A DNA stretch of 64,000 bases from a virus: IMG/VR virus record IMGVR_UViG_3300032235_000467. The stretch is one strand, 5' to 3'. The notes under the pieces were generated by a model. That model saw only the letters and a list, made by a program, of their open reading frames with translations. It was not told where the DNA came from and ran no database searches. Below, one piece after another: positions 19,720 to 62,100 of the stretch (position 1 is its first letter; the number at the start of each line of letters is the position of its first letter). The translations under genes were made by a program, and so were the position numbers.

Positions 19720-19727
19720 TATTTATA
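19720..19727 (+). promoter_or_regulatory. putative late promoter TATTTATA
   Basis: Intergenic, 16 nt before ATG 19744. Confidence 0.6.
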
Positions 19728-19743
19728 TATACAAAATACAAAA

Positions 19744-20403
19744 ATGGGATATTTAAACAATACCGTAGTAACTGTCGATGCTATTTTGACTAAAAAAGGC
19801 CGGGAACTCCTAGCCAGGAACGACGGGTCTTTCAGAATTACACAATTTGCAATGGCTGACGATGAGATAGATTATACTCTGTACAATACAACTCACCCTT
19901 CAGGATCAGCTTTTTATGGCGAAGCCATAGAAAATATGCCTCTTTTAGAAGCATTCCCAGACGAGAATCAAATCATGAAATATAAACTGGTAACCCTTCC
20001 TAGAGGAACAAGTAAGCTGCCAGTTATCAATGTAGGGTACGCTAGCATAGTCCTTAAACAAGCTGCTTCCATAGTAATAACCCCACAGACTTTGAATTAT
20101 CTAGGTGCTACTTCTACATTTGAGCCTAGCGGATATGTAGTAACCGTTGGAGATGCTAGACTTTTGTCTACCTTTAGTGGGATAGGAATTGATACCACTA
20201 ATTTAGGTATATCTGATTTGAACAGCACTACAGGAACTCAGATAAGCAAAACCGCAATAGGAACGTCTTTTACTTTGGTAGGTACTACAATAGATACTCT
20301 ATTCGGAAGCACATTAACCAGCCTAAGCACAACTATAACTGTAGTTGGTAGGGATTCTGGTGCTAGAATCACCATTCCATTAACTGTAAAAAAGAATAAA
20401 TAA
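19744..20403 (+). CDS. baseplate/tail-fibre attachment protein
   Basis: DAILTKKGRELLA...FRITQFAMADDEIDY resembles fibre-proximal N-terminal domains. Confidence 0.65.
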   Translation: MGYLNNTVVTVDAILTKKGRELLARNDGSFRITQFAMADDEIDYTLYNTTHPSGSAFYGEAIENMPLLEAFPDENQIMKYKLVTLPRGTSKLPVINVGYASIVLKQAASIVITPQTLNYLGATSTFEPSGYVVTVGDARLLSTFSGIGIDTTNLGISDLNSTTGTQISKTAIGTSFTLVGTTIDTLFGSTLTSLSTTITVVGRDSGARITIPLTVKKNK

Positions 20404-21431
20404 TGTCCTTCATAACATTTCAAGATGATGATAGTGTAATAAGTTCGGAGGCCATAACGGCACCTCTATGGACTTCTAACGTCTATAACATAACCGCTTC
20501 ATTCACATCCAGTGTTCAACAGGGAGACAATACAGGAAAGTATTACTTAAATGTGTACAATCTACCAGTTGGAAGTGACGGATCAGAGACGCAATATTCA
20601 GTGGCCTACGGACATATATCAGGTAGCGGATCAGCTGTTTTTAATAGTCTGGTAGATGAAAAAAGTCCAACAAGAGACATATACGGACAGTACAGAAATT
20701 TAGTATACGGAGATGAAGGTAGCGTATTTAACTTTGGAGGAAGCAATGGAGTGTCCAGGGATATATTTGCAATCAATATAAACAGGTCTAGATATAAAGA
20801 AAAGATCAATACCGGAACTTGGAACTTGACTTTAAAGAATGGCAGTAGCTTCTTATATTTAACTGATAATAGCAAAGATACTTCTGTAAATAGCTTTATT
20901 GGAGGAAATAGGGTATACTACATCGTAAGCGGATCTAATGGTAATAGTTACAATACGTCTTCTGTACAGACTGCTAGCGGAAGCTATGGGTATTTCTTTC
21001 CAGATATGGGTATATATGTATTGAATCCAAGAGCGTTGTCACTTTCATATGCTAATGGTGGTATAGGTATGACTGTAGATGAGACAAGCGCATTGTCATA
21101 TACAGCCACTTATAATATAAATGCAGACAGATTATTTAGAGTAATAAACTCTGGATCGTCTTTTCAAGCAAAAAGTGAGGAGACTATATCATCTAGGTAT
21201 TTCTTTGTAAATGCAAAAAGTTCCCAGTTAAACTATACAACAAACCCGTCTATTATAGATGAAAACGGAAATGTACTGTACTCTGTATTGATAGATAATC
21301 CGCAGGTGTTTCCAACAACTATAGGATTGTATAACGATGCTAATGAGCTTTTGGCTGTTGCTAAATTAAGTAAACCTTTGCCAAAAGACTTCACTAAGCA
21401 GATAACATGTAGAGTCAAATTAGAATTTTAA
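20403..21431 (+). CDS. baseplate/tail-associated protein
   Basis: C-terminal TTIGLYNDANELLAVAKLSKPLPKDF motif. Confidence 0.65.
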   Translation: MSFITFQDDDSVISSEAITAPLWTSNVYNITASFTSSVQQGDNTGKYYLNVYNLPVGSDGSETQYSVAYGHISGSGSAVFNSLVDEKSPTRDIYGQYRNLVYGDEGSVFNFGGSNGVSRDIFAININRSRYKEKINTGTWNLTLKNGSSFLYLTDNSKDTSVNSFIGGNRVYYIVSGSNGNSYNTSSVQTASGSYGYFFPDMGIYVLNPRALSLSYANGGIGMTVDETSALSYTATYNINADRLFRVINSGSSFQAKSEETISSRYFFVNAKSSQLNYTTNPSIIDENGNVLYSVLIDNPQVFPTTIGLYNDANELLAVAKLSKPLPKDFTKQITCRVKLEF

Positions 21432-21448
21432 ATTCGAGATGACTACAT

Positions 21449-23509
21449 ATGTCGGCATACAAACGTTTATATAAGTCAGATATAGTTAATACTCCATATA
21501 TATCAAATAAAAATTGGAGTATTAGCGTATGTGATTTAGAGTCTTACGGAATCAGAGTATACAATGGTGTAAAAACCAGTAGTATATTCGATTATAATAA
21601 TGACATTAAGACCAATAATGAATACGATAGATTGGTTTTTGATTCAGTAAACCATTTGTATTATCAATCATTTTCTGGATCATATTTAGATGATTCTTCA
21701 AATTTATCATCTCTAAACTACGCTAGCGCATCTATATACAGACCTTCTGGATCTTATTATGATTATACACCTCAAGGGTATATGATAAAAGAGTTCCCTA
21801 CAGGATCAGATGCTACCATAAAAGTATTATCAATATCTAAAGACGTTTATAGTACATCTGTAAAGAAAATGTCTTTTAACATTTCTACATCCTTTATGAA
21901 TTTACAGGATGATGGAAAAGGTAATGTGTACGACACCTCAGGATCCGATATTTTAGTAGGCAATATATTCTATGAACATGGCCTAATAATAGTAACTCAC
22001 CCAGACTATCAAGAGATATTTCCAATACCCCCATATGCAAAAGATGATTATGTATCATTTTCATCTTCAACAACTCCTAAGCTGATAAGTCCTTTAGCAA
22101 ATGATAATACTAGAGGGTGGGTTTCTTTAACGGGATCGATAGAGTTATCAGGGTCAGATGCTGCCTATTTTACTAATAATGGAAACGGCACCTTAACGTT
22201 AAGCGCCAGTGTCGTTGGAACATATACAACACACTACAGATTTTCAACCAGTAGTTCTGATAGTAGTTGTATTCTTAAGTCAAATTATGCTAAAATTGAA
22301 GCTAAAGTCGGTAAACCTCTATGTAAGTTTATTGTATATGCTATATATTTGACCCCTACCCCTACTCCAACACCTACTGCAACTCCAACAGTTACTCCTA
22401 CTCCAACACCTACTGTAACACCTACTGCAACAGCAACACCAACTCCAACTGGAGCACCTACTAATACACCTACTCCAACTCCTACCCCAACTAACACAGC
22501 TACTCCTACAGCTACAGCTACGCCAGTACCTCCAACAGCAACACCTACTCCTACGCCAACTGGAGCACCTACTAATACACCAACTCCTACTCCAACGCCT
22601 ACTGCAACAGCAACAGCAACACCTACTCCTGAACCACCAACAGCAACGCCTACTCCAACTCCTACCCCGACAGGAGCTCCTACTAATACGCCTACCCCAA
22701 CTCCTACTCCTGAACCGCCAACGGCAACACCTACTCCTACTGCAACAGCTACGCCTACTCCTACTCCTGAACCACCAACAGCAACACCTACTCCTACTGC
22801 AACAGCTACGCCTACTCCTACTCCTACAACTGAACCGCCTACAGCTACACCAACTCCTACAGCTACACCAACGCCTACTCCTGAACCACCGACAGCAACA
22901 CCTACTCCTACTGCAACGCCTACTGCAACAGCTACTCCTACTAATACTCCTGTTCCACCAACAGCAACGCCTACTCCTACTGCAACGGCCACTCCAACGC
23001 CTACAGCTGAACCGCCTACAGCTACTCCTACACCTACACCAACGAACACTTCTGTACCTACTAATACTCCTACACCTACACCAACAAACACTCCAACACC
23101 TACTCCTACAGTAGTGTCCTTCTCTTATAGCTTTGACTACGCCTCTACTTGTGCGGTAGCTTGTGAGTACATGGAGCCTGTATCTGTATACAGTGCTGAC
23201 AGTCCTCTTGTCGTAGGATCTAGACTATTCTTTGATAGTGGATTAACTAATGAAGTGTTTTATAATTATTATTATAGTAATGGAACAACTTGCTATAGAT
23301 ATGAAGAAATTGATGGTTTTGGAGAAATAATATCAATATCTTCGTGTAATACTCCAACACCTACTCCAACACCTACAACTACTCCTGAGCCTACAGCAAC
23401 TCCTAGTACGTGCTATCAGTGTTCTCAAGATCTTAGCATATACACCACATTAATTGAGTGTGAGACTAGTTGTGATGGAGGAGTTTGTGCAGAAGCGGTT
23501 TGCCCTTAA
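21449..23509 (+). CDS. baseplate-type N-domain + Ig-like domain + mucin-like Pro/Thr stalk + Cys-rich tip
   Basis: LQDDGKGN...[14 protein letters not shown]; PYAKDD...PLAND (Ig/cadherin-like); ~250-aa PT tract; Cys-rich C-terminus. Confidence 0.75.
22352..23110 (+). repeat. Pro-Thr coding repeat ([20 protein letters not shown]), ~253 codons
   Basis: Degenerate CCN-ACN 6-nt periodicity. Confidence 0.95.
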
Positions 23510-23545
23510 TGTTTAAATTGTTATTTTTTTATGTAAAAAATATTC

Positions 23546-23553
23546 TATATTTG
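23546..23553 (+). promoter_or_regulatory. Bacteroidota-type -7 element TATATTTG upstream of the glyco-enzyme operon
   Basis: TAnnTTTG 13 nt before ATG 23567; -33 element is poor. Confidence 0.45.
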
Positions 23554-23566
23554 TAAAAAATAGTAT

Positions 23567-24832
23567 ATGAGTTTCGAAAATGATAAGATATTTGTACAGA
23601 TAGCTAGCTACAGAGATCCTCAGTTAATACTTACGATAGACGACATGATAACCAGGGCTAAATACCCTGAAAGATTGACATTCGGTATATGCTGGCAATA
23701 CGATGAAGATGAAGATACTGAAATATTTGACAAGAAGCCAAATTTTCGTATAAAAAAATATCATTATAGCGAAAGTGAAGGTTTAGGATGGGCAAGAAAT
23801 GTTACTAACAGTCTATATGAAGGAGAAAAGTACACATTACAAATAGATAGCCACCACAGATTTGTCGATGGGTGGGATGAGATATTAATGGAAGATTACC
23901 TCCAAGCTTTAGAAATATCGGAAAAACCGATTATTACTACCTATTGTACACCATTTGATCCGGAAGGATGTAGATGTAAATATGAAAAACTACCATCCTT
24001 GATGTCTCAGTATGAGTTCTCGGCAGATAAATTACTTATGAGTATGCCTTGGTATATTCAGGATTATCAGCAAAGAACTAAGGTAATAAGAGCTAGAACC
24101 ATAAGCGGACATTTTTATTTTGTAGATGGGAGTTTTATAGACGAAGTAAGGTATGACCCAGACATATATTTTGGTGGATACACTGAAGAGACGACTCTTA
24201 GTGTAAGAGCCTTTACAAAAGGGTATGATTTCTTTAGCCCATATAGAATGATTATGTGGCATGAATATACCCGTAATTATAGGCGCAAACACTGGGAAGA
24301 TCATGGTGCGGAAAGTGCTACAAAGAAGACTTCTGGAGAAAGGGATGTATACGCTAGGAACAAGACCAGGCAGTTATTTGGGCAAGAGGATCATGGTATT
24401 GATATGGGAATATATGGACTAGGAGATGTAAGATCATTACACGATTACGAGGTATATGGAGGATTTGATTTTAAGAATTGTAGAATACAAGACTATACTC
24501 TTAAGGTTAAAGAACCCCCAAACCCTATAGATTGGGAAGAACAGTTTAAGACATATAAACAGGATGTTACAGTTTATTGGGATGTAGAATTCTTTAAGAA
24601 GTTTGGATTTGAAAATCCTAAATTTTTAACACTAGGAATACAAACAAAATCCGGAATAGAAATATATCGCAAAGATTTTAAAATAGACACAGACCCAGAA
24701 TATGTTAATTTAATAAAAAACATTCACACAGTTAAAGTAGATTCTCAGGACAAGCCCTCTAAAATAGTAATGTACCTATTTGATGAAATTAAACAGTGGA
24801 GTGACAGATACGAAAAAGATATTAACATATGA
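23567..24832 (+). CDS. GT60-like polypeptide/hydroxyproline alpha-GlcNAc transferase
   Basis: IFVQIASYRDP, GLGWAR, YTLQIDSHHRF..GWD, EE..LSVRAFTKGYD, WHEY.R; no TM segment. Confidence 0.8.
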   Translation: MSFENDKIFVQIASYRDPQLILTIDDMITRAKYPERLTFGICWQYDEDEDTEIFDKKPNFRIKKYHYSESEGLGWARNVTNSLYEGEKYTLQIDSHHRFVDGWDEILMEDYLQALEISEKPIITTYCTPFDPEGCRCKYEKLPSLMSQYEFSADKLLMSMPWYIQDYQQRTKVIRARTISGHFYFVDGSFIDEVRYDPDIYFGGYTEETTLSVRAFTKGYDFFSPYRMIMWHEYTRNYRRKHWEDHGAESATKKTSGERDVYARNKTRQLFGQEDHGIDMGIYGLGDVRSLHDYEVYGGFDFKNCRIQDYTLKVKEPPNPIDWEEQFKTYKQDVTVYWDVEFFKKFGFENPKFLTLGIQTKSGIEIYRKDFKIDTDPEYVNLIKNIHTVKVDSQDKPSKIVMYLFDEIKQWSDRYEKDINI

Positions 24833-26004
24833 GAATAGCTTTCATAGTTATAGGGAATAGTCGCAGAAGCAACTATCTAAATGGAGATACTATAAGGTAT
24901 GGGGGCGGAGGAGGATCAGGAACAGACGGAAGCTCAATAATAGTAGCAGAACAGCTATCTTTGTTAGGACATGAGGTAGTTATAGCATCTGAAAAGCTAG
25001 AGCCTCAATTAGAAGTAGCATATTCTCAAAAAGGAATTAATTTTGATTCTGGGAAAATAGTTAGAGGAGTCCAATACTGCAATATGGACTTTGAAGGTGT
25101 TGAAAATAAAGAATTTGATATTTTAGTAAGTAGTCTGTGGTTTCATGGATATGATAAAATGCCTATAGTAGTAACAAAGGCATTGATATATTGGTGCCAT
25201 ATGCAATGGATTTATGGTATAGAAGAGGTTTTAAACTACGTAAACAGCAATAACTTAGCCCTAGGGTTTGTTAATATATCAGAATGGGAAAGAAACATGA
25301 ATCAAGGAGTGCTTAATTCGGTTAAAACTAGATTCCCATCAGTTAAAAATACTTTAATACCAAATCCAGTAATGGATGATATAATAGAGGAAGTACTATC
25401 ATTAAATCTGCAAAAAAAGAAACATAAGGTAGTGTTTCATGCAGCTTGGGCTAGAGGCGGAAATGTAGCAATAGAAGCTGTAAGAAAGTTAGGATGGGAA
25501 GATGTTGAATTTCATGCTTTTGATTATTTGATGGCAACTCATGCTCATAATGATTCATTTTTTAATATGCACAATGGCGTAGATAAGAAAACACTATTTA
25601 CACATATAGCAGAGAGTGAATATTTTATATACCCTCTATATACACCATACCAGGATGTACACAAGGATACTTTTAGCTGTGTAGTAGCTGAATCTATAGC
25701 ATTAGGGGCAATACCTGTAACATACCCATTAGGAGCCTTACCTGAGAATTTTCAAGATTATTGTGCGTGGCTAGAGCCGCCACCAGGAGCAGATCTAGAA
25801 AAAATGCAAAAAGAATCACTATCCAAAGATTTGGAAGGTATATTCAAATATAATGATAATATAGTAAATAAAATAAACTATTTAGAGTCAAATCCTAAAA
25901 TAAAAGAGGATTTAATAAAAACAGGAAAACAATACATATTAGATAAGTTTAACGCTAATAGGATAGGGAATATGTGGCAAAGTTTTATAAATGAAATAGT
26001 ATGA
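24829..26004 (+). CDS. GT-B fold glycosyltransferase (GT4-like)
   Basis: GGSGTD...LSLLGHEV; DTFSCVVAESIALGAIPVT..LGALPE (E/D-x7-E motif). Confidence 0.8.
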   Translation: MRIAFIVIGNSRRSNYLNGDTIRYGGGGGSGTDGSSIIVAEQLSLLGHEVVIASEKLEPQLEVAYSQKGINFDSGKIVRGVQYCNMDFEGVENKEFDILVSSLWFHGYDKMPIVVTKALIYWCHMQWIYGIEEVLNYVNSNNLALGFVNISEWERNMNQGVLNSVKTRFPSVKNTLIPNPVMDDIIEEVLSLNLQKKKHKVVFHAAWARGGNVAIEAVRKLGWEDVEFHAFDYLMATHAHNDSFFNMHNGVDKKTLFTHIAESEYFIYPLYTPYQDVHKDTFSCVVAESIALGAIPVTYPLGALPENFQDYCAWLEPPPGADLEKMQKESLSKDLEGIFKYNDNIVNKINYLESNPKIKEDLIKTGKQYILDKFNANRIGNMWQSFINEIV

Positions 26005-26687
26005 GTGAAGACTTTACAAATTATTATAAATTATTACATAATGATATAACAATTCCTATAGATCATATAAAATATCTTAACACTATTAACTATTATCCAA
26101 AAGTAGTTTTTGATATAGGAGCCGCAGTATTACACTGGACTAAAGAAGCTAAAAAAATATGGCCTAATGCAAAATACTATGCATTTGAAGGAATGACGCA
26201 AGTTAAAAAATTTTACGAGTATATGCAACAAGATCATACTATAGGATTATTATCCGATATAGTAGATAAAGAAGTTGTATACAACTGTAATCCTATTAAT
26301 TTAGGAGGAAATTCTTATTACAAAGAAAATGAAGAATATTCCTCAGCAGCAAAAAAAATATACACAAAAGAATTTGAAGAAGTTAGAACTACAACTACTT
26401 TAGATTACATAGTTAAAACCTATAAATACCCACAACCTGATTTTATTAAAATAGATGTACAGGGAGCTGAGATAGATGTATTAATTGGAGCTGAAGATAC
26501 TTTAAAAGGAGTCAATCATTTGATTATAGAATTACAGCATGTACAGTATAATATAGGAGCTAAGTTAGTAGAAGAATCTCTACCTTTTATAGAATCTTTG
26601 GGATTTCAATTAGTCCCCACAGGAAACGATAACAAGTATTTTTGTGGTAACGGGCCAGATGCTGATTATCATTTTATAAAAAAATAG
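26001..26687 (+). CDS. FkbM-family SAM-dependent methyltransferase
   Basis: VFDIGA, YAFE, TTLD, PDFIKIDVQGAEIDVLIGA. Confidence 0.88.
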   Translation: MSEDFTNYYKLLHNDITIPIDHIKYLNTINYYPKVVFDIGAAVLHWTKEAKKIWPNAKYYAFEGMTQVKKFYEYMQQDHTIGLLSDIVDKEVVYNCNPINLGGNSYYKENEEYSSAAKKIYTKEFEEVRTTTTLDYIVKTYKYPQPDFIKIDVQGAEIDVLIGAEDTLKGVNHLIIELQHVQYNIGAKLVEESLPFIESLGFQLVPTGNDNKYFCGNGPDADYHFIKK

Positions 26688-26690
26688 GTT

Positions 26691-27782
26691 ATGTACGATT
26701 ATACAATAGTAGGATCAGGATTGTTTGGATCTGTATGTGCTAGAGAGCTTACAGATAAGGGGTATAAATGTCTTGTAATAGACAAGCGTAATCACATAGG
26801 AGGCAATTGCTATACAGAAAATATAGATGATATAAATGTTCATAAATACGGGCCACACATATTCCACACATCTGATAAAAAAGTTTGGGAATATGTAAAT
26901 AGGTTTGCTACTTTTAATAACTTCAGCTATAGGCCAAAAGTAAACTACAAAGGAAAAATATACTCGTTCCCTATAAACCTAATGACTCTATACCAGGTTT
27001 ATGGAGTAACAACTCCAGATGAGGCTACTAGAAAACTAGAAGATGTTAAAATAGATATACCAAGTCCAAAAAATCTAGAAGAGTGGATTCTATCTCAAGT
27101 AGGCCCAGAATTGTACAACATATTTGTGAAGGGGTACACCAAAAAACAATGGAAGAAAGATCCAAAAGATCTACCATCAAGCATAATAAGAAGGTTACCA
27201 ATAAGAATGTCTTTTGAAGATAATTATTATGAAGACGTATACTCAGGAATACCAATAGGAGGATACACACAGATATTTGAAAACCTACTATCAGGTATAG
27301 AAGTACGCCTAAATACCGATTATTTTTACAATAGAGATTATTTTAATGATATTGCTAAAAAAGTAATATATACTGGTCCTATAGATAGATTTTATTCATA
27401 TATGCATGGAAAATTGGAGTACAGAAGCCTTAGATTTGAAACTGTAAAGTTAAATATGCCTGATTATCAAGGTGTTGCTGGTATGAATTATACTGATGAA
27501 GAAGTTCCTTTTACAAGGATAGTAGAACATAAGCACTTTGAATTTGGAAAACAAAAGAGTACGATAGTAACATTTGAGTATCCAGAATCTACTGGAGAGC
27601 CATATTACCCTATAAACGATGAAATAAATAACTCTGTGTATAAAAAATACAGAGAAATGATGGATAAAGAGACTAAATACCTATTTGGTGGTAGATTGAC
27701 GGACTATAAATATTATGATATGCACCAAGTTATAGCATCTGCCTTATCTAAAAGCCAGAAAGAAAATATTTATAATATATGA
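26691..27782 (+). CDS. glf: UDP-galactopyranose mutase
   Basis: [57 protein letters not shown]. Confidence 0.95.
27767..27774 (+). promoter_or_regulatory. putative late promoter TATTTATA
   Basis: Within the 3' end of glf, 4 nt before ATG 27779. Confidence 0.55.
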
Positions 27783-28438
27783 ACACGTATCAAGTCTTTA
27801 TTTCTGGGGACGCCGCAGGTCCATTTGATGTATACTATGATAGTATATCAGTTGGTACACAACTAGATACTGGCGTTTCTAGGAGTAATCTCTTGGCAGG
27901 TTATACTGTAACTGGTATACCTGATTCCGCATCTAGCATAATAGTTTTTAATACAGATTCAGGATGTAATAACTTTGTTACTTATTTTATAAAACCACCT
28001 ACCCCAACCCCTACACCTACACCTACACCAACACCAACACCAACTGTAGTAGTAGATTGTTCAATGTCTGGAGGTTCTATAATAGAGGCAACCCCTACTC
28101 CTACACCTACCCTAACTGTAACGCCGACACCAACAGCTACAGCAACGTCAACACCTACGCCAACAGCAACGTCAACACCTACGCCAACTCCTACATTAAC
28201 ATCATATGATCACTATATAGCAGATGAATACTACTGTCCTGGATGTACAATAAAAACATCTGGAGTAGTTGTAGCATTCCCAGCTGGTCAAACAGTTGTT
28301 GTAGGAAGATGGTATCCTGATGCAAGTGATACATCACACACATTCTTGATAGTAAGTACTACATCATCTGGTCCAGGGTACATACTAACGAATGAATTTG
28401 GATCGTTTACAGCTTGTAACATAGCTTGTTCAATATAA
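27779..28438 (+). CDS. Pro/Thr-repeat (mucin-like) protein, paralog A
   Basis: N-domain AGPF...[12 protein letters not shown]...C; two PT tracts; Cys-containing C-domain; no signal peptide. Confidence 0.8.
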
Positions 28439-28455
28439 TGAAAATATAATAGTAT

Positions 28456-29211
28456 ATGCCTACTAAATCAATAACAGTAACAATAGCAAGTATAGGATCT
28501 TCCGCAGGACCTTTTAACATATCTGATGATGTTTTGGGAGTTGTTGCTATGAATGTAAGTAGGTCTCAGCTATTATCAGGATATAGTGTAAACGTGGACA
28601 CTACTGCAACTGTAGTAACTGTCGCATCTGTTGGAGACTGTACAACATCATTAAACATACTTTTATCAACCCCTACACCAACTCCTACTCCTACTGTAAC
28701 TCCAACTCCTACCGTAACTCCAACTCCTACTCAAAACCCTATATACTTTGATAGTAACTTTACAAACACTGCAAATGTTTGTGGAGGTAATCCTACTAAT
28801 ACTGGAGGCAAGATATGGTCGAGACTGGTAGCTCCTTCAGGAAGTACAGTAGAATTTACGGTTACAGCTGAACAGTTCATAACTAGTATAAATGCTGTAA
28901 GCGCATCTATATCAGGAATATTATATAATACAACACTACCTTCTTCAAACCCAACAAAAGGAACAGTAGTTACGTCATCATACGCAAGTATCCTAAGTGC
29001 AGATGTTCCTAACTATATATCAGATACACAAGTAGTCACAGTAACAATACCATCACAAGGATATCAAGATTACTTGTTAATATATAATACTTATAATATA
29101 GCTTCAAACTTTACAAATGGAGAAGTTAGGGCCACAATAACAAAAGTAAATGGGGTAGCAGTAAGCAATGCAGGAAGCTTGGCAACATCTTATAACTGTT
29201 CCAATCCGTAA
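28456..29211 (+). CDS. Pro/Thr-repeat (mucin-like) protein, paralog B
   Basis: N-domain AGPF...VSRSQLLSGYSV...C; PT tract; beta-rich C-domain. Confidence 0.8.
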   Translation: MPTKSITVTIASIGSSAGPFNISDDVLGVVAMNVSRSQLLSGYSVNVDTTATVVTVASVGDCTTSLNILLSTPTPTPTPTVTPTPTVTPTPTQNPIYFDSNFTNTANVCGGNPTNTGGKIWSRLVAPSGSTVEFTVTAEQFITSINAVSASISGILYNTTLPSSNPTKGTVVTSSYASILSADVPNYISDTQVVTVTIPSQGYQDYLLIYNTYNIASNFTNGEVRATITKVNGVAVSNAGSLATSYNCSNP

Positions 29212-29223
29212 TAATATAAAAAT

Positions 29224-29523
29224 ATGGTAGAATATCAAGATTTTAAGCTTAACTTTACTAATAATCACATGATTATAGAACGTAATATAAAATGTACGAT
29301 CAAAGATCATGAGATGGGATATAGCTATAATCCATCATTACTGACATCAGGCAGCCAAGAAAATATGCTAGGGTTTGCTACAGGATCTGATTTTATGCCA
29401 TATGTTACCACTATAGGGTTTTACAATGATACTAATGATTTATTGATGGTAGCTAAATTTGCTCAACCAGTACCAATATCAGCAAATACAGATACAAATT
29501 TCTTAATTAGAATGGATATATAA
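29224..29523 (+). CDS. stand-alone C-terminal domain of baseplate protein (paralog of the 20403..21431 C-terminus)
   Basis: YSYNPS...PYVTTIGFYNDTNDLLMVAKFAQPVP..FLIRMDI vs NYTTNPS...VFPTTIGLYNDANELLAVAKLSKPLP..CRVKLEF. Confidence 0.75.
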   Translation: MVEYQDFKLNFTNNHMIIERNIKCTIKDHEMGYSYNPSLLTSGSQENMLGFATGSDFMPYVTTIGFYNDTNDLLMVAKFAQPVPISANTDTNFLIRMDI

Positions 29524-29524
29524 T

Positions 29525-29959
29525 ATGTGGTTTTACAAAGGACAGGTTATAACAGACATTTCCCAGTTTCCAGAAAATGCATATGGTTTTATATACAAGA
29601 TAAGAAAAATAGACGGAGGCAAATTCTATATAGGGAGAAAGAATTTAGTATCAGAAAGAAACAAACCTTTAACAAAAAAGGAGATATCAGAACATACCGG
29701 TAAGGGTAAGAAACCTACTAAAAAGAAAGTAGTATCTGAGAGCGATTGGAAGACTTATTACGGGTCTAATGCTGCGCTTAAGGCCGATATAAAGGAGCTA
29801 GGTAAAGAATCCTTTGTTAGGGAGATAATGCATATATGCACCCACAAGAAACAAATGACATATCAAGAGTTAAGACATCAGATTATAAATGGGTGTCTAG
29901 AGTCTACAAACTGCTATGTTGATAACATTCTTGGTAAGTTTTGGAGAAAAGATATTTAG
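29525..29959 (+). CDS. GIY-YIG-type endonuclease-like protein
   Basis: YGFIYKI...KFYIGRK...ESDWKTYYGS...FVREI. Confidence 0.7.
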   Translation: MWFYKGQVITDISQFPENAYGFIYKIRKIDGGKFYIGRKNLVSERNKPLTKKEISEHTGKGKKPTKKKVVSESDWKTYYGSNAALKADIKELGKESFVREIMHICTHKKQMTYQELRHQIINGCLESTNCYVDNILGKFWRKDI

Positions 29960-56164: not shown

Positions 56165-59100
56165 ATGGCTACTTGGCTCCAGATAAATCCTCAGGATGGA
56201 AATGCTACATATAATAATGTTACGGTATACAATACGATCGTAGCTAACTCTATTAGTGGTTCTTTTACTGGGTCTTTTAATGAAAATGATCCTATATTTA
56301 CTGAAAAGTCTGCATCATTAGCCACCACAGGCTCTAATATTTTTATCGGTAATCAAACTATCACTGGATCTTTAATATCATCTGGAGCTGTATATTTCCC
56401 AGCAATAACTAATGCCTCTCAATCCGGAATAGTAGTAGTTGACCCAGCAACAGGACAGTTATATTATACTACAGGATCAATTACAGGAGGTGCTTCAGGA
56501 TCAATGGGACCTTCAGGATCTTCTGGTACTAGTGGTACTGCAGGTAGCAGTGGCACATCAGGAACATCTGGTATTACCGGTGATAGGTATTTAACCAGTT
56601 CTACAAGTTCTATAACATTAGGATTAAGTGGTAGTATTACTGTAGGTACAAATTTAGCTTATTCAACGGCCCAGACTGCAATAATAGCATACGATCTCAC
56701 CAATTACCAGGAAGTACCTGTAATATCATATAATCCTTCTACCGGAGTGTTAGTATATGGCACACCAATTACTGTCGTAGGAAGTGGAACATACTCAACT
56801 TGGCAAGTAAACCTATCGGGAGCTAGTGGAGGAGATGGATCCTCTGGAACTTCTGGATCATCAGGTAACAGCGGTACTTCAGGATCCTCAGGAAGTAGTG
56901 GATCTACAGGAACTTCTGGATCTACAGGTACTAGCGGTTCATCTGGCTCTACTGGATCTTCAGGATCTAGCGGTACTTCAGGTACCTCTGGAACTAGTGG
57001 ATCAACTGGTACTTCAGGTTCTACTGGAACTAGCGGAAGTTCAGGTTCTACTGGAACGTCAGGCACTTCTGGGTCAAGCGGTACATCAGGAACAACTGGA
57101 TCATCGGGCAGCGCAGGATCCTCTGGTACTAGCGGTACTGCTGGATCAAGTGGAAGTTCAGGTTCTTCCGGATCTACAGGATCTTCAGGATCTACAGGAA
57201 CAAGTGGCTCTTCAGGTACATCAGGTACTAGTGGCACCTCAGGAACTTCAGGATCTAGTGGATCCTCTGGAAGTGCTGGAACTAGTGGTACAAGCGGATC
57301 TTCTGGATCTACAGGTAGTAGTGGATCTACGGGCACATCTGGATCAACTGGTACATCTGGTAGTACAGGAACTAGCGGAACAGCAGGGTCTTCTGGATCA
57401 ACCGGTTCATCCGGTAGTAGTGGGTCATCCGGTAGTAGCGGTTCTTCGGGTTCTACTGGATCTTCTGGATCAAGTGGTACTGGGTTCAATACTATCAACA
57501 GTCCAGCTATAGGGAGAATTTTATTAGCAGACAACTCAACTAATGCAGCTACTGCATCTGTGAGTATGAGTTTTAATAATGGAATTCTTTTATTAACTGG
57601 AAGTATTATCGCTACAGGTAATATCCAAGCTAATACTCTTATAGTACAGACCATAACTTCTTCAGTAGTATACTCTAGCGGATCTAATATATTTGGTAAT
57701 GCATTAACAAATACCCACCAGTTTACTGGTTCAGTATTAGTAACGGGTTCTTTATCCATAAGAGATTTAGCCTTAAGTAGTAGCGCTACTAGATATGTAG
57801 TATCAGATCTTGATGGTAGATTATTTTATACTACTGCAAGCGCAGCAGGATCCTCAGGAACTGCTGGTACTAGCGGTACTTCTGGCTCCTCAGGTTCTTC
57901 AGGGTCTAGCGGCAGTGCTGGGTCTAGCGGATCCTCAGGAACTGCTGGTACTAGCGGTACTTCTGGTTCAACAGGTTCTTCAGGATCTACAGGTTCATCA
58001 GGTAGTAGCGGTTCTTCCGGTTCAACTGGCTCCTCTGGTTCTAGTGGAACTTCCGGAACAAGTGGCACAGCAGGATCAACTGGCTCATCAGGTAGTTCTG
58101 GTTCTACAGGTACTTCTGGATCAGCTGGTTCATCTGGTAGTAGCGGCTCTTCCGGTAGTAGTGGGTCCTCAGGTAGTACTGGTTCATCTGGTAGTACAGG
58201 AACTAGTGGATCGTCTGGTTCTACAGGATCAAGTGGATCTTCTGGTACAGCTGGTACATCCGGTTCTACAGGTTCATCAGGTTCTAGTGGAACTTCCGGC
58301 ACAGCTGGCACTAGCGGTACAACTGGTACTTCAGGTTCAACAGGAACTAGTGGTTCTACAGGAACTTCAGGATCATCAGGTAGTTCCGGCTCTTCAGGAT
58401 CTTCTGGAAGCACAGGATCATCAGGCACTAGCGGTACAACTGGATCATCTGGTTCATCTGGTTCGACAGGAACTAGTGGCTCGTCAGGTTCTTCAGGTAG
58501 TGCTGGCTCTTCAGGTTCTACAGGAACAAGCGGAACATCTGGTACTGGATTCAATACTATCAATAGCCCAGCTATAGGAAGGATATTATTAGCTGATAAT
58601 AGTACTAATGCTGCAACAGCATCAGTTAGTATGAGCTTTAATAATGGTACTTTATTGATTACAGGAAGTATTACTGCTACAGGTAATATCCAAGCTAATA
58701 CACTAATAGTACAGACTGTATCATCCTCAGTAGTATATTCTAGCGGCTCTAATATATTTGGTAATAACTTATCAAACACCCATCAATTTACCGGAAGTGT
58801 TCAAGTTACAGGTTCAGTATCTATAAAAAACTTAAGCCTTAATTCTGGCTTATCTCAATTTGTAGTGGTAGACCCTGTTACCGGTCAATTGTATTATAAT
58901 AATTCAGGAGCAGCTGGTTCATCAGGCTCTAGCGGATCTTCCGGTACTTCAGGTTCTACAGGAACATCTGGCAGCTCAGGTTCAACTGGTACTTCTGGTT
59001 CTACTGGTACATCCGGTACGTCAGGTTCAACAGGATCTTCTGGATCAACCGGATCCTCCGGCTCATCTGGATCAACTGGCTCTTCTGGTAGCACTGGTAC

Positions 59101-62100
59101 TAGTGGATCATCAGGTACAACCGGATCCTCAGGAACTTCAGGATCTAGCGGTTCTGCAGGATCCTCTGGTTCTACTGGTACATCTGGATCTAGTGGTTCA
59201 ACTGGCTCAAGTGGTAGTACTGGTACAAGTGGTAGCGCAGGATCAAGTGGAAGCAGCGGATCGTCTGGTACATCTGGGTCCTCTGGTTCAACTGGCTCAA
59301 GTGGGTCTTCAGGATCAACAGGAACTAGCGGCTCCTCCGGCTCTTCAGGAAGCTCAGGTACGTCAGGTAGTACAGGTACTAGTGGATCATCAGGTAGCAG
59401 TGGTTCATCTGGATCTAGCGGTAGTACCGGTACAAGTGGTACTGCAGGTACATCAGGTAGTGCAGGTTCAACTGGTACAAGCGGATCTACAGGTACTTCT
59501 GGTTCATCTGGATCAACTGGTACCTCTGGAAGTACAGGGTCCTCTGGTTCAGCTGGTACATCAGGTAGTAGCGGTACAACTGGAACATCCGGATCCTCTG
59601 GTTCAACAGGTACATCAGGTAGTACAGGTACTAGTGGGTCATCAGGTAGTACAGGATCTAGCGGATCTACTGGTTCATCAGGATCAAGCGGATCTTCAGG
59701 TACCACTGGATCTTCTGGAACATCAGGATCTGCAGGTAGATCTGGTGATAGATATTTAACAAGTTCCACAGGATCGGTAACTTTAGGATTAAGTGGATCT
59801 ATTACTGTAGAACCAGGATTGGCGTATTCTACTGCACAGACAGCAATAATATCTTACAATATAAGCAATTATCAGGAAGTACCTGTAGTATCATATAATC
59901 CTTCTACAGGGGTATTAACATACGGTACACCTATTACTGTTGTGGGTTCTGGTACTTATTCAAGCTGGCAAGTAAACTTAGCTGGAGCTAGTGGAGGAGA
60001 TGGATCTTCCGGAACATCTGGTTCATCTGGTTCATCAGGACAGAACGGAAGCTCAGGCACTTCTGGACAGAATGGTTCATCTGGCTCATCAGGATCTACA
60101 GGGACTAGTGGTACATCAGGCACATCTGGTTCTACAGGGACTAGTGGTTCCTCCGGTTCTTCCGGATCAAGCGGCTCTTCTGGAAGTGCAGGCTCTTCAG
60201 GTACTACTGGATCATCCGGCACATCTGGGTCAACTGGTACCTCAGGATCAACAGGAACTAGCGGATCATCTGGCTCTACTGGAACATCAGGTAGTACAGG
60301 TACTAGTGGCACCTCAGGAACTTCAGGTTCTTCAGGCAGTAGCGGATCAAGAGGTAGCTCCGGATCCTCAGGATCAACAGGCACTTCTGGTACATCAGGA
60401 ACAACAGGTACTAGCGGTTCTACTGGTAGCTCAGGTAGTTCAGGATCCACAGGTTCAAGCGGTTCCACAGGAACTTCTGGCAGCTCAGGAAGCACAGGTA
60501 CTAGTGGATCTACTGGAACATCTGGTTCCTCAGGCTCAGCAGGATCCTCTGGTTCGTCTGGTACATCAGGTAGTACAGGAACATCCGGCACTTCTGGTAC
60601 ATCCGGCTCATCAGGATCTACTGGTACATCTGGCTCTACCGGGACATCAGGTAGTACAGGTACATCCGGCTCATCAGGATCTACTGGATCCTCTGGATCT
60701 ACTGGTTCATCTGGGTCAACTGGTACTTCTGGCTCTACTGGTACAAGTGGCAGCAGTGGTTCATCTGGTTCATCAGGGTCTAGTGGCTCATCTGGCTCTA
60801 CTGGTACAAGCGGATCAACAGGAACTTCCGGATCAACAGGAACATCAGGTTCTAGTGGAAGTACGGGTACATCAGGTTCTAGCGGTACTGGATTCAATAC
60901 TATACATACTCCTGCTATAGGAAGAATACTGTTAGCAGATAATAGTACTAACGCAGCTACTGCTTCTGTAAGTATGAGCTTCAATAATGGCGTATTATTG
61001 ATTACAGGTAGCATTACTGCCACTGGAAACATTCAAGCTAATACACTGATAGTACAAACAGTAAGTTCATCAGTAGTATACTCTAGCGGATCTAATATAT
61101 TTGGCAATAGCTTGTCCAATACTCATCAATTTACTGGATCTATACTAGTTACAGGATCTTTATCTATAAAAGATTTAGCCTTAAGTAGTAGCGCTACTAG
61201 ATATGTAGTATCAGACCTTGCTGGTAAATTATTTTATACCACTGCTAGTGCAGCAGGAACTTCAGGTACAACAGGAACTTCAGGAAGTTCTGGATCTTCT
61301 GGAAGCAGTGGCTCAACAGGAACCTCAGGCACCTCTGGTTCTACTGGTACTTCTGGATCTTCTGGTTCAGCAGGTTCATCTGGAAGCAGTGGTTCAACTG
61401 GAACTTCTGGTTCAACAGGCACTAGTGGTTCAACTGGAACTTCTGGAAGCACCGGAACTAGTGGTTCAACAGGATCTTCTGGATCCTCTGGATCAGCAGG
61501 TTCTAGCGGAAGCACGGGTACTAGTGGAACATCAGGTACCTCTGGTTCTTCAGGTAGTGCCGGCTCAAGTGGTTCTACTGGTACATCAGGAAGTACTGGT
61601 ACATCAGGATCTGCAGGATCTTCTGGCTCTTCTGGTTCTACTGGTACATCAGGAAGTACAGGAACTAGCGGTAGTTCTGGTTCAACTGGTACCTCAGGTA
61701 CTTCTGGATCTACCGGTACATCTGGAAGTACGGGAACTTCCGGATCAACAGGAACTTCAGGTACTAGCGGAAGTACTGGTACCTCTGGATCAAGTGGAAC
61801 AGGGTTTAACACTATACATACTCCTGCTATAGGAAGGATATTGTTAGCTGATAACAGCACAAATGCAGCTACTGCATCTGTGAGTATGAGTTTTAATAAT
61901 GGTATTTTGCTTATAACAGGTAGCATTACTGCTACTGGCAATATTCAGGCTAACACCTTAATAGTACAAACAGTAAGTTCTTCAGTCGTATACAGTAGTG
62001 GTAGTAATAGATTTGGAGATGCTTCAAATGATACACATGAATTTACAGGTAGTGTAAAAATAACTGGCTCAATAGCTGTTAGAGACTTAGCTGTAAATGC

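Follow-up and report, generated by a model that had tools for sequence, protein, structure and literature searches.

Why would an uncultured T4-like phage wedge four soluble sugar enzymes between three Pro-Thr (PT) proteins of its tail-fiber region? The arrangement suggests that the enzymes probably coat the phage's own fiber linkers. On sequence and structure-model evidence, we assign a probability of roughly 0.6 to the reading that the cassette performs cytoplasmic, mucin-type O-glycosylation of these linkers. The analysis shows directly which enzymes are encoded, how they fold, how the genes are ordered and conserved, and with what they co-occur; from this we infer the acceptor, the donor sugars, the order of steps, and the physical effect.

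The locus and its fiber-module setting

The window, the whole 64-kb stretch of DNA that was analyzed, carries the seven ORFs of the locus at the coordinates given below, all on the + strand. Nucleotides 23567-27782 encode, in this order, a GT60/PF11397 transferase, a GT4-fold transferase, an FkbM methyltransferase, and a UDP-galactopyranose mutase (Glf). Starts and stops overlap at 24829/24832, 26001/26004, and 27779/27782. In the last case the glf stop is overlapped by the start of the PT gene at 27779, and translational coupling therefore reaches the first downstream PT gene. A preliminary description had recognized four coupled enzyme genes flanked by three PT proteins without signal peptides; coordinates, overlaps, and tracts agree with it, and in a sequence scan all seven proteins lacked both a hydrophobic N-terminus and membrane-spanning segments. 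A TATATTTG box (23546..23553, + strand), 14 nt before the GT60 start, fits TAnnTTTG, which we take to be the consensus of the Bacteroidota-type -7 element. A box fitting this pattern is also retained 5' of GT60 in the relatives L001, L002, L003, L005, and L020, and the sequence suggests that the enzyme genes may have a promoter of their own. The reverse-strand ORF at 22285-23091 (268 aa) is a Gly/Val mirror image of a PT tract and was rejected as a gene.

The baseplate location proposed earlier is supported by wedge and hub PHROG families 5' of the locus and by similarity to Flavobacterium phage immuto. The fiber module opens with two conserved structural genes (19744..21431, + strand; 219 and 342 aa) with 68% identity to immuto gp107, after which come tail-fiber and tail-spike genes. 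These two genes, with at least 590 related viral contigs, served as anchors for the clade-wide module comparison. The module closes with a small protein of 99 aa (29224..29523, + strand) that shows similarity to the C-terminal end of the 20403 protein (33-34% identity to the C-terminal part of 20403 homologues by tblastn). It is conserved across the clade with the cassette present or absent and was rejected as a glycosylation component.

The four enzymes

The product of 23567..24832 (+ strand, 421 aa) is a soluble GT-A glycosyltransferase of the GT60 family, matching Pfam PF11397, "Glycosyltransferase (GlcNAc)" (E 8e-60; 203 bits against a cut-off of 21), and phrog_24687 (E 3e-90). With its structure model (pLDDT 93.4), the top 29 PDB entries were without exception polypeptide GalNAc-transferases (Z 19.1-22.8, with an rmsd of 3.3-3.9 across 263-287 residues), and the next different fold scored Z 17.4. 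An alignment of 40 sequences shows no variation at D94 and H96, which belong to a D-S-H motif, or at H232. Residues ∼325-421 form an additional beta-rich domain. On the basis of the model and of family analogy, we propose that this protein is an initiating polypeptide O-HexNAc transferase; GT60 enzymes are polypeptide alpha-GlcNAc transferases (PMC3769586, PMC8724618).

The next gene (24829..26004, + strand, 391 aa) has a weak match to PF00534 (E 0.009, below cut-off), and its model (pLDDT 92.2) is a complete GT-B fold that most resembles GT4 enzymes (MshA, Z 29.1; PimA, Z 27.9; BshA, Z 27.2), with sucrose-phosphate synthase also among the matches (Z 28.8). This GT4-like gene lies directly 3' of GT60 in 44 of 47 loci and is missing only in those ending within or just after GT60. 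None of its 560 homologues has a cellular name, and the family, as judged from its sequences, is divergent and so far known only from metagenome and phage-like contigs. We propose it as the extending enzyme.

The SAM-dependent FkbM-family methyltransferase (26001..26687, + strand, 228 aa; PF05050, E 4e-16; TIGR01444, 60.4 bits against a cut-off of 37.7) is proposed to be a sugar O-methyltransferase; relatives keep it or have other methyltransferases in its place. Glf (26691..27782, + strand, 363 aa) matches PF03275 (E 3e-74), PF13450, and TIGR00031 (362.7 bits, above the equivalog cut-off of 303.75) and, by these profiles, supplies UDP-galactofuranose (UDP-Galf). All four preliminary assignments are thus correct by domain profiles plus the GT4 fold match, and the accompanying caveat stands, as no Galf transferase was recognized in the cassette. 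The GT4-like enzyme is a candidate user of UDP-Galf.

Pro-Thr tracts and their association with GT60

Thr/Pro tracts occur in only 3 of the 68 + strand ORFs of at least 80 aa in the window, and all three abut the cassette. The fiber-module protein at 21449..23509 (+ strand, 686 aa) consists of an N-terminal region (∼1-300), a main tract (residues 302-557, nt 22352-23119; T112 P87 A31 S2), a Cys-rich domain, a short second PT tract (residues 634-654, nt 23348-23410), and a Cys-rich tip. Its main tract, rich in Thr and poor in Ser (112:2), is built of degenerate tandem arrays with mixed codons, which indicates conservation of amino-acid composition rather than of a DNA repeat. The N-terminal 300 residues recur at the same position across the clade, and there are weak Ig-like/Big_9 and phage-cluster leads. 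We propose this protein as the main acceptor.

In the 219-aa protein at 27779..28438 (+ strand), a conserved 70-aa N-terminal domain precedes PT tract 1 (residues 73-92, nt 27995-28054), a conserved VVDCxxSGGS mini-module, PT tract 2 (residues 115-141, nt 28121-28201), and a C-terminal domain. The alignment contains invariant Thr and Pro columns, and the C-terminal domain is swapped among close relatives, being unrelated in the window, L001, and L020. The third protein (28456..29211, + strand, 251 aa) begins with a domain that bears weak similarity to the N-terminal domain of 27779 (E 0.036, pairwise BLASTP), followed by a PT tract (residues 71-92, nt 28666-28731), and a 160-aa C-terminal domain; homologues lie 3' of the cassette in L001-L006 and L020.

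The order GT60-GT4-variable slot-Glf is conserved in 47 viral contigs, and homologues of the three PT proteins flank the cassette in the window's relatives. The variable slot of these relatives holds GT25, GT11, a second GT4, or other methyltransferases, and this exchange suggests that the glycan, like surface glycans, diversifies. Another GT60 subfamily (33-36% identity) is found at the cassette's position in the fiber module with a different cassette (GT34/GT77-like, FkbM-HtrL fusion, GT25, and CmcI methyltransferase) and is likewise flanked by Thr/Pro/Ser-rich proteins, e.g., (TPAS)n. In a tree, the two phage GT60 groups form separate clades among bacterial sequences.

The co-occurrence of GT60 with PT-repeat genes, which the preliminary description had proposed to examine, came out favorably. 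A (PT)4 DNA pattern was present in this window and in all nine other GT60-positive phage genomes tested (G001, G002, G004, G005, G007, XacN1, Xoo-sp13, CM1, and RAS14) and in none of 13 GT60-negative large phage genomes, with 0-1 hits for a reversed-pattern control. Three complete close relatives without tracts are also without GT60. Among complete fiber modules, tracts were found in 12 of 13 with GT60 vs. 9 of 44 without it; these nine count against the reading, and a search for GT60 elsewhere in five of the tract-bearing, GT60-less contigs (20-54% complete) found none. An independent-pairs test within the clade was not significant, with only four independent GT60 changes in the module on the tree (Thr/Pro changed in the same direction in two, in the opposite direction in ∼1, and not at all in ∼1). 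Our literature search found no paper on the pairing of a GT60 cassette with Pro-Thr fiber proteins.

A proposed pathway and its alternatives

We suggest the following pathway. The GT60 enzyme, a GT-A transferase of the retaining type, would place the first HexNAc on Thr of the (Thr-Pro)n tracts in 21449, 27779, and 28456; by family analogy, this sugar would be alpha-GlcNAc from UDP-GlcNAc. Each Thr of such a tract has Pro at -1, +1, and +3, the context that initiating enzymes of the mucin type (GT27) prefer. The GT4-like GT-B enzyme would extend the first sugar, Glf would provide UDP-Galf for one transfer, and the FkbM enzyme would O-methylate the glycan. Unless the host provides the enzyme, UDP-Galf in the minimal four-gene version can be used only by GT60 or by the GT4-like protein. 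The result would be an extended, protease-resistant linker with a dense glycan coat, placed between a conserved domain for virion attachment and a distal domain that varies.

The main rival, which we consider rather unlikely, is that the cassette remodels a host envelope glycan (LPS/LOS core, O-antigen, or capsule) during infection, which could block superinfection or keep progeny from sticking to debris; the fiber-module site would then be an accessory-gene hot spot and the PT tracts ordinary flexible linkers. PF11397 homologues are known from at least 585 bacterial species, few of 80 bacterial loci have long Thr/Pro tracts nearby, and three of four loci scanned have LPS-core-type neighbors (GT9 heptosyltransferase with DUF4254, GT32 with GT25, or carbamoyltransferase with HtrL_YibB), so that family membership alone is no proof of a protein acceptor. 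Phage XacN1 has the same GT60-carbamoyltransferase pairing, with GT9 nearby. The accessory transferases belong to families characteristic of LPS/O-antigen enzymes (GT4, GT25, and GT11), which counts against a protein acceptor; Glf and FkbM are also standard gene types of such loci. Soluble transferases acting on lipid A-core require no flippase or polymerase. A domain and membrane-segment scan found neither of these nor a priming phosphoglycosyl transferase, an absence that argues against the rival. Independence of the cassette from PT genes, named earlier as a refutation, was partly seen at the local level, at ∼12 loci where no PT gene is adjacent, but the two complete genomes among them encode PT proteins elsewhere. 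Remodeling of host glycans leaves unexplained the (PT)4 association across genomes and the finding that two independent GT60 clades, each with its own accessory genes, both lie amid Thr/Pro-rich fiber genes. It also sits poorly with the protein-directed best fold matches of GT60, with the coupling of glf to a PT gene, and with a phage that looks lytic and T4-like (no integrase-like family among ten window proteins scanned).

It is more doubtful still that the cassette glycosylates other phage proteins, the PT tracts being bystander linkers that travel with fiber genes. Candidate acceptors would be a giant Gly-Ser/Thr collagen-like fiber of at least 2612 aa in the window (56165 onward; 33% Ser, 25% Gly, 18% Thr), or capsid or tail-tube termini as in mycobacteriophages; glycans on capsid and tail-tube C-termini are, according to PMC12619734, the only experimentally shown phage case. 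The lineage of L074, L077, and L084 has GT60 and no Thr/Pro tract by the filter used, and in L074-type loci GT60 lies beside Ser/Thr-rich, Pro-lacking proteins. Against this, the genome-level link is specific to (PT)4 tracts, and the immediate GT60 neighbors are Thr/Pro-rich in both clades.

For Rhizobium phage RL38J1 and related Pootjesviridae, which also encode the mutase, it has been proposed that phage DNA is glycosylated, a hypermodified base bearing the Galf; the mutase is linked there to DNA glycosylation clusters (PMC13326640), and 90 phage records of various types have a Glf homologue. Such a role is very improbable here. A search for PF00303 (thymidylate-synthase/hydroxymethylase) found no member in the complete G001 or in G005, G006, and G007 (51-80% complete), although G002 has one. 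The cassette lies in a fiber module rather than amid nucleotide-metabolism genes, GT60 has its nearest fold matches among protein-directed enzymes, and the link with PT tracts would go unexplained.

The overall interpretation given in the preliminary description is therefore partly supported; its chemistry, with GlcNAc on Thr, Galf extension, O-methylation, and stiff stalks, is what we infer from sequence, fold, and gene context. Among known systems, XacN1, which encodes a GT60 homologue, has at least two periodate-Schiff-stained glycoproteins in its virions (PMC5852040, Fig. S4), and one of its PT proteins (3313 aa) is encoded beside baseplate wedge genes, ∼9 kb from the GT60 gene. In phage immuto, the slot matching the cassette locus holds annotated tail-fiber and tail-spike genes. 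Beyond phages, the GT60 and Trypanosoma cruzi Galf background cited earlier holds, T. cruzi mucin core 2 having beta-Galf on GlcNAc (PMC3769586, PMC8724618), and the nearest solved folds to the GT60 model are the mucin-type polypeptide GalNAc-transferases.

Enzymes of the cassette

The region from 21449 to 29523 comprises eight genes in one orientation, of which the four central ones encode enzymes: a GT60 transferase (23567-24832), a GT4-like transferase (24829-26004), an FkbM methyltransferase (26001-26687), and Glf (26691-27782), all on the + strand. Start and stop codons overlap at the GT60/GT4-like, GT4-like/FkbM, and glf/27779 junctions; the last overlap indicates translational coupling of the enzymes to 27779, the nearest Pro-Thr gene downstream. 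Coordinates, codon overlaps, and a tract scan therefore bear out the preliminary description, in which coupled enzyme genes lie between three Pro-Thr proteins (21449, 27779, and 28456, named by gene start). Its domain identities also hold, by Pfam and NCBIfam profile matches or, for the GT4-like enzyme, by model fold, as does its claim that signal peptides are absent: none of seven proteins has a signal peptide or membrane segment.

The product of 23567-24832 matches PF11397, the Pfam GlcNAc glycosyltransferase family that corresponds to GT60, with an E value of 8e-60 (203.5 bits, against a cut-off of 21) over residues 59-303 and an N-terminal stretch, and matches phrog_24687 with an E value of 3e-90. 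Its model (pLDDT 93.4) has the GT27-related GT-A fold with a D-x-H motif and a distal His. Among PDB entries, polypeptide GalNAc-transferases from animals and Toxoplasma, the initiators of mucin-type O-glycosylation, take all of the first 29 places (Z 19.1-22.8, rmsd 3.3-3.9 over 263-287 residues), and the next other fold scores 17.4; the best GT27 match of the catalytic domain has a Z score of 22.8 and an rmsd of 3.5 over 275 residues. A D-S-H motif (D94 and H96) and H232 are invariant in 40 GT60 sequences. Comparison with PDB chains by single sequence and by profile gave nothing usable and, because no residue-level alignment to GalNAc-transferases was obtained, we infer from their GalNAc-transferase-like spacing that these three residues may be the metal ligands. 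Residues ∼325-421 form a confidently modeled, beta-rich domain of ∼100 aa, for which an Atlas search returned no usable match; a ricin lectin domain, present in the animal enzymes, is absent from GT60 enzymes as described in the literature (PMC8724618). The literature supports the background invoked in the preliminary description, in that Thr residues of protist mucins receive alpha-GlcNAc from GT60 enzymes (PMC3769586, PMC8724618) and that, in Trypanosoma cruzi mucin core 2, beta-Galf is added to GlcNAc-Thr (PMC3769586).

The product of 24829-26004 scores 16 bits against PF00534 (Glycos_transf_1), below the cut-off of 26.4, and has no NCBIfam match, so it is named GT4-like only. Its model (pLDDT 92.2) is a complete two-Rossmann GT-B fold nearest to GT4 enzymes (MshA, Z 29.1, rmsd 3.1 over 324 aligned residues; PimA, 27.9; HepE, 27.4; BshA, 27.2). 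The 26001-26687 product is an FkbM methyltransferase by both Pfam and NCBIfam profiles. Glf scores 362.7 bits against the UDP-galactopyranose mutase equivalog TIGR00031 (cut-off, 303.75), also matches PF03275 and PF13450, and carries VGSGLFGS, an FAD-binding Rossmann motif, at its N terminus. In the four-gene version of the cassette, the user of UDP-Galf would be the GT60 enzyme, the GT4-like enzyme, or a host enzyme only.

Genomic setting and probable host

The window comes from a metagenomic scaffold of 158 kb and encodes baseplate hub and wedge proteins, terminase, portal, and a T4-type major head protein, the last closest to those of Flavobacterium phage immuto (55% identity) and Microcystis phage Mel-JY01 (50%); a search for near-identical DNA in cultured phages found none. 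In immuto, homologues of the 19744 and 20403 genes are followed by genes annotated as tail fiber and tail spike, which places the cassette inside a fiber module. The hub and wedge genes and this comparison agree with the baseplate-region setting described previously. The module is closed by 29224-29523 (99 aa), whose product resembles the C-terminal part of the 20403-21431 product (342 aa) with 33-34% identity over ∼70 residues, and these two proteins frame the variable fiber slot in every relative, whether or not a cassette is present. A small GIY-YIG-like protein (29525-29959), directly before the primase gene, is kept across the clade, and its Mel-JY01 homologue is annotated as GIY-YIG superfamily.

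Transcription signals were sought in the same region. A box at 23546-23553 (+ strand), 14 nt before the GT60 start, fits TAnnTTTG, which we take to be the Bacteroidota −7 promoter element, and such a box is kept 14-35 nt before the GT60 start in the window and five related loci (L001, L002, L003, L005, and L020). The box hints that the enzyme genes have their own promoter, of host-sigma type, and, together with a GC content of ∼34%, suggests a Bacteroidota host. The only nominally bacterial member of the window's phage GT60 clade is a 16-kb contig of a Cryomorphaceae metagenome-assembled genome (L153; 57% identity); this contig probably belongs to a phage and was binned together with a Flavobacteriales genome, which would be consistent with the host suggested here. 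A scan of sigma-70 promoters and terminators gave no signal above shuffled background. The motif TATTTATA occurs on the + strand of the window at 19720, 27767, 31471, 32723, 36027, 38328, 41573, 43469, 51774, 52487, and 56121, and TATAAATA with its complement occurs 24 times against 12 expected. Since + strand copies of TATTTATA precede many structural genes by 4-37 nt, this is probably the late-promoter motif of the clade. One copy lies within the end of glf, 5 nt before the 27779 start.

Association of GT60 with Thr/Pro tracts

Thr/Pro tracts occur in only 3 of the 68 + strand open reading frames of the window, those of 21449, 27779, and 28456, so that three proteins carrying dense Thr/Pro tracts flank, and are encoded together with, the putative initiating enzyme. 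In the 21449 protein, a 256-residue tract (112 Thr, 87 Pro, 31 Ala, and 2 Ser) is accompanied by a shorter one of 21 residues; there are two tracts in the 27779 protein and one in the 28456 protein. By our own tract filter, the longest tract among relatives reaches 626-675 Thr/Pro-rich residues. The tract DNA uses mixed codons and contains tandem arrays in degenerate form only, which indicates that composition, rather than a DNA repeat, is the feature kept. Within the 27779 family, the N-terminal domain and the Thr and Pro columns are kept and the C-terminal domain is exchanged even among close relatives, a habit of receptor-binding tips. For the first 300 residues of the 21449 protein, the only leads from an Atlas search were weak, Ig-like ones, each <0.8.

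GT60 homologues number at least 5,725 in a large protein collection, the best 120 all being ≥69% identical, and were found in 47 viral contigs. In all 44 contigs that extend past GT60, a GT4-like gene follows it directly, and in most of these, glf lies two to five genes beyond this pair. The intervening genes vary (GT25, GT11, a second GT4-like gene, FkbM, and other methyltransferases); fixed ends around a variable middle are the usual mode of variation of surface-glycan loci. In the nearer relatives of the window, homologues of the same three Pro-Thr proteins flank the cassette. The dependence of the cassette on such genes, which the preliminary description had made a test of its proposal, breaks down locally in ∼12 loci, where the cassette does not adjoin a Pro-Thr gene, but persists at the genome level in that the complete genomes among them encode Pro-Thr proteins elsewhere. 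Three proteins of 1641-2461 aa (P0121, P0122, and P0123) each contain four GT60-matched stretches.

A second phage GT60, 33-36% identical to that of the window (PF11397, E value of 1e-71), occupies the same slot in other members of the clade (locus L075, 12260-17569; L092, 14087-19898; L063, 15451-18317). Its cassette lacks glf and encodes a GT34/GT77-like enzyme, an FkbM-HtrL_YibB fusion, GT25, and a CmcI-type methyltransferase. Directly before this GT60 gene lies a 21449 homologue whose product has a long Thr/Pro/Ser tract, e.g., (TPAS)n, and the cassette is followed by the gene of a further protein rich in Thr (20-22%) and Pro (10-12%). When placed in a tree together with bacterial homologues, the phage GT60 sequences form two separate, well-supported clades, which indicates that two GT60 lineages came to occupy one position next to proteins of one kind. 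In one divergent lineage (L038, 14693-17284), the gene after the cassette encodes 863 aa with matches to FG-GAP repeats and dockerin-like domains.

Co-occurrence was assessed in whole genomes with a DNA pattern for (Pro-Thr)4, for which the same pattern read backwards gave 0-1 matches; the positive control for the GT60 search worked. The pattern was present in all nine other GT60-positive phage genomes (two complete jumbo relatives, three partial relatives, and the cultured XacN1, Xoo-sp13, CM1, and RAS14; 3-24 matches each) and in none of 13 GT60-negative large phage genomes (immuto, Mel-JY01, three complete close relatives, RsoM2USA, Atu_ph07, two huge uncultured phages, and four others), a link that is suggestive rather than decisive because the positives represent about three or four independent lineages. 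Among complete fiber modules, tracts were present in 12 of 13 with GT60 versus 9 of 44 without it, proportions that are inflated by relatedness and were rejected as independent statistics, since only four GT60 changes are needed on the tree and an independent-pairs test on these four contrasts was not significant. The co-occurrence that the preliminary description proposed to test is thus suggested between genomes but does not reach significance within the clade. The data read best as GT60 occurring almost only where Thr/Pro tracts exist, with tracts also present in modules lacking GT60.

Interpretation and comparison with known systems

We propose, with a probability of roughly 0.6 and on the basis of gene content and structural models, that the cassette encodes a soluble, phage-encoded mucin-type O-glycosylation system that would act on the Pro-Thr linkers of fiber-module proteins. 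Such initiation, whether by GT60 or by GT27 enzymes, is considered to belong to the eukaryotic secretory pathway. More tentatively, and as a joint claim to which we give somewhat less than even odds, (i) a mucin-type pathway starting with Thr-O-HexNAc in the bacterial cytoplasm, directed by the phage, would yield diversifying, Galf-containing, O-methylated glycans on the Pro-Thr linkers of tail appendages; (ii) this pathway would be widespread, given thousands of metagenomic GT60 homologues with ≥70% identity, at least two independent phage GT60 lineages, and the Xanthomonas jumbo phages; and (iii) in the four-gene form, either the GT4-like enzyme, known from (phage-like) metagenome sequences only, or GT60 would be a new kind of galactofuranosyltransferase.

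The cassette might instead remodel glycans of the host envelope, which we consider unlikely although it fares best among the alternatives. PF11397 homologues occur in at least 585 bacterial species, mainly Acidobacteriaceae, Verrucomicrobiota, and Alphaproteobacteria. Of four bacterial loci with scanned neighbors, one has a GT9 heptosyltransferase and DUF4254, another GT32 and GT25, and a third a carbamoyltransferase and HtrL_YibB, the fourth being uninformative; the three settings look like lipopolysaccharide (LPS)-core or other glycan assembly. XacN1 GT60 likewise has carbamoyltransferase and GT9 neighbors, and family membership therefore does not settle the acceptor. Tracts of ≥60 residues lie nearby in only a handful of 80 bacterial loci, so a pairing of GT60 with Thr/Pro tracts is not claimed for bacteria; many of the short Thr/Pro hits are probably wrong-frame open reading frames in GC-rich DNA. 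Envelope remodeling, however, leaves unexplained both the link to Pro-Thr tracts and the convergent placement of two GT60 lineages. The window encodes no priming transferase, flippase, polymerase, or core transferases.

Still less probable is that other virion proteins are the acceptors, although the window does encode a candidate. An open frame at 56165-64000, which runs off the window end, specifies a protein of at least 2612 aa that consists of 33% Ser, 25% Gly, and 18% Thr and is almost free of Pro, in which Gly-Ser/Thr-Ser collagen-like triplets are broken by globular repeats; its DNA has ∼46% GC compared to ∼34% elsewhere. This fiber is a possible further glycosylation target. Glycosylation of hydroxymethyl-pyrimidines in phage DNA ranks lowest and is very improbable: phage Glf has a precedent there, but the hydroxymethylase family PF00303 is absent from four of five related genomes and the location of the cassette is wrong.

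Glycosylation of the Pro-Thr linkers, if confirmed, would show that protist mucins and bacterial viruses follow a common logic, and could explain the unusual length of the linkers. It would add a new layer of particle-surface variation bearing on host range, protease resistance, stickiness, and antibody recognition, and the compact, soluble enzymes of the cassette would offer a means to glycosylate PT-tagged proteins in bacteria. The proposal joins two known things, virion glycosylation by mycobacteriophages and GT60-initiated glycosylation of protist mucins; a literature search found no publication linking GT60 or PF11397 to phages.

T. cruzi TcOGNT-2 and Dictyostelium Gnt2 belong to the same family, PF11397, and act on Thr-rich, mucin-like acceptors such as those proposed here, and the beta-Galf of T. 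cruzi core 2 (PMC3769586) matches the presence of Glf. The protist enzymes, however, are membrane-bound Golgi proteins, whereas the phage GT60 is soluble, would act in the bacterial cytoplasm on fiber-module proteins rather than mucins, and has the extra C-terminal beta domain of ∼100 aa. In the cytoplasmic hydroxyproline glycosylation of Skp1 (Dictyostelium and Toxoplasma), the prolyl hydroxylase PhyA and the GT60 enzyme Gnt1 are followed by soluble extending transferases, building the order GlcNAc-Gal-Fuc-Gal. Judged from its genes, the phage cassette similarly combines a soluble cytoplasmic GT60 with soluble stepwise transferases, and the GT25 and GT11 (galactosyl- and alpha-1,2-fucosyltransferase families) of its relatives and the GT34/GT77-like enzyme of the second type recall the Skp1 order. 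Unlike the Skp1 system, which modifies a single residue, the phage cassette is proposed to act on a long repeat tract, and it is not accompanied by a prolyl 4-hydroxylase gene: PF13640, the prolyl hydroxylase family, occurs in one of five related genomes, far from the cassette. The hydroxyproline route was therefore dropped as the default and kept as a less likely one. Animal GT27 enzymes are the best structural match of the catalytic domain and share D-x-H and the distal His, but neither the single-sequence nor the profile search detected sequence similarity to any PDB chain, and the phage enzyme has neither a transmembrane anchor nor a secretory pathway.

Among viruses, chlorovirus PBCV-1 has a pathway of soluble, cytoplasmic enzymes that includes sugar methyltransferases. 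It differs in its eukaryotic host, atypical N-linked capsid glycans, and other transferase families; according to the summary in PMC5852040, its virion protein is glycosylated at least in part by virus-encoded enzymes. Mycobacteriophage glycosyltransferases O-glycosylate the phages' own virion proteins, at the C termini of capsid and tail-tube subunits (Freeman et al. 2023, as quoted in PMC12619734), and the quoting passage presents mycobacteriophages as the only case in which virion glycosylation by phage enzymes is experimentally shown. In contrast to that system, the window cassette is known from genes and models, its lead enzyme belongs to GT60, its proposed targets are internal Pro-Thr linkers of fiber-module proteins, and its host is probably from the Bacteroidota rather than the Actinobacteria; in both, phage-encoded transferases lie near structural genes. 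The cultured phages XacN1 and Xoo-sp13 (Xanthomonas) and CM1 and RAS14 (Stenotrophomonas) encode GT60 homologues (34-37% identity over the full length) and carry (PT)4 tracts in giant and fiber-like proteins. In XacN1, GT60 adjoins the carbamoyltransferase gene in a replication-gene region, with GT9 nearby and no GT4-like or glf partner, and a 3313-aa Pro-Thr protein adjoins the baseplate wedge genes, ∼9 kb from the GT60 gene. As an experimental hint, XacN1 virions are reported to show at least two periodate-Schiff-stained glycoprotein bands, which the authors credit to the phage's own transferases (PMC5852040), and these four cultured phages make the proposed glycosylation of Pro-Thr tracts directly testable.
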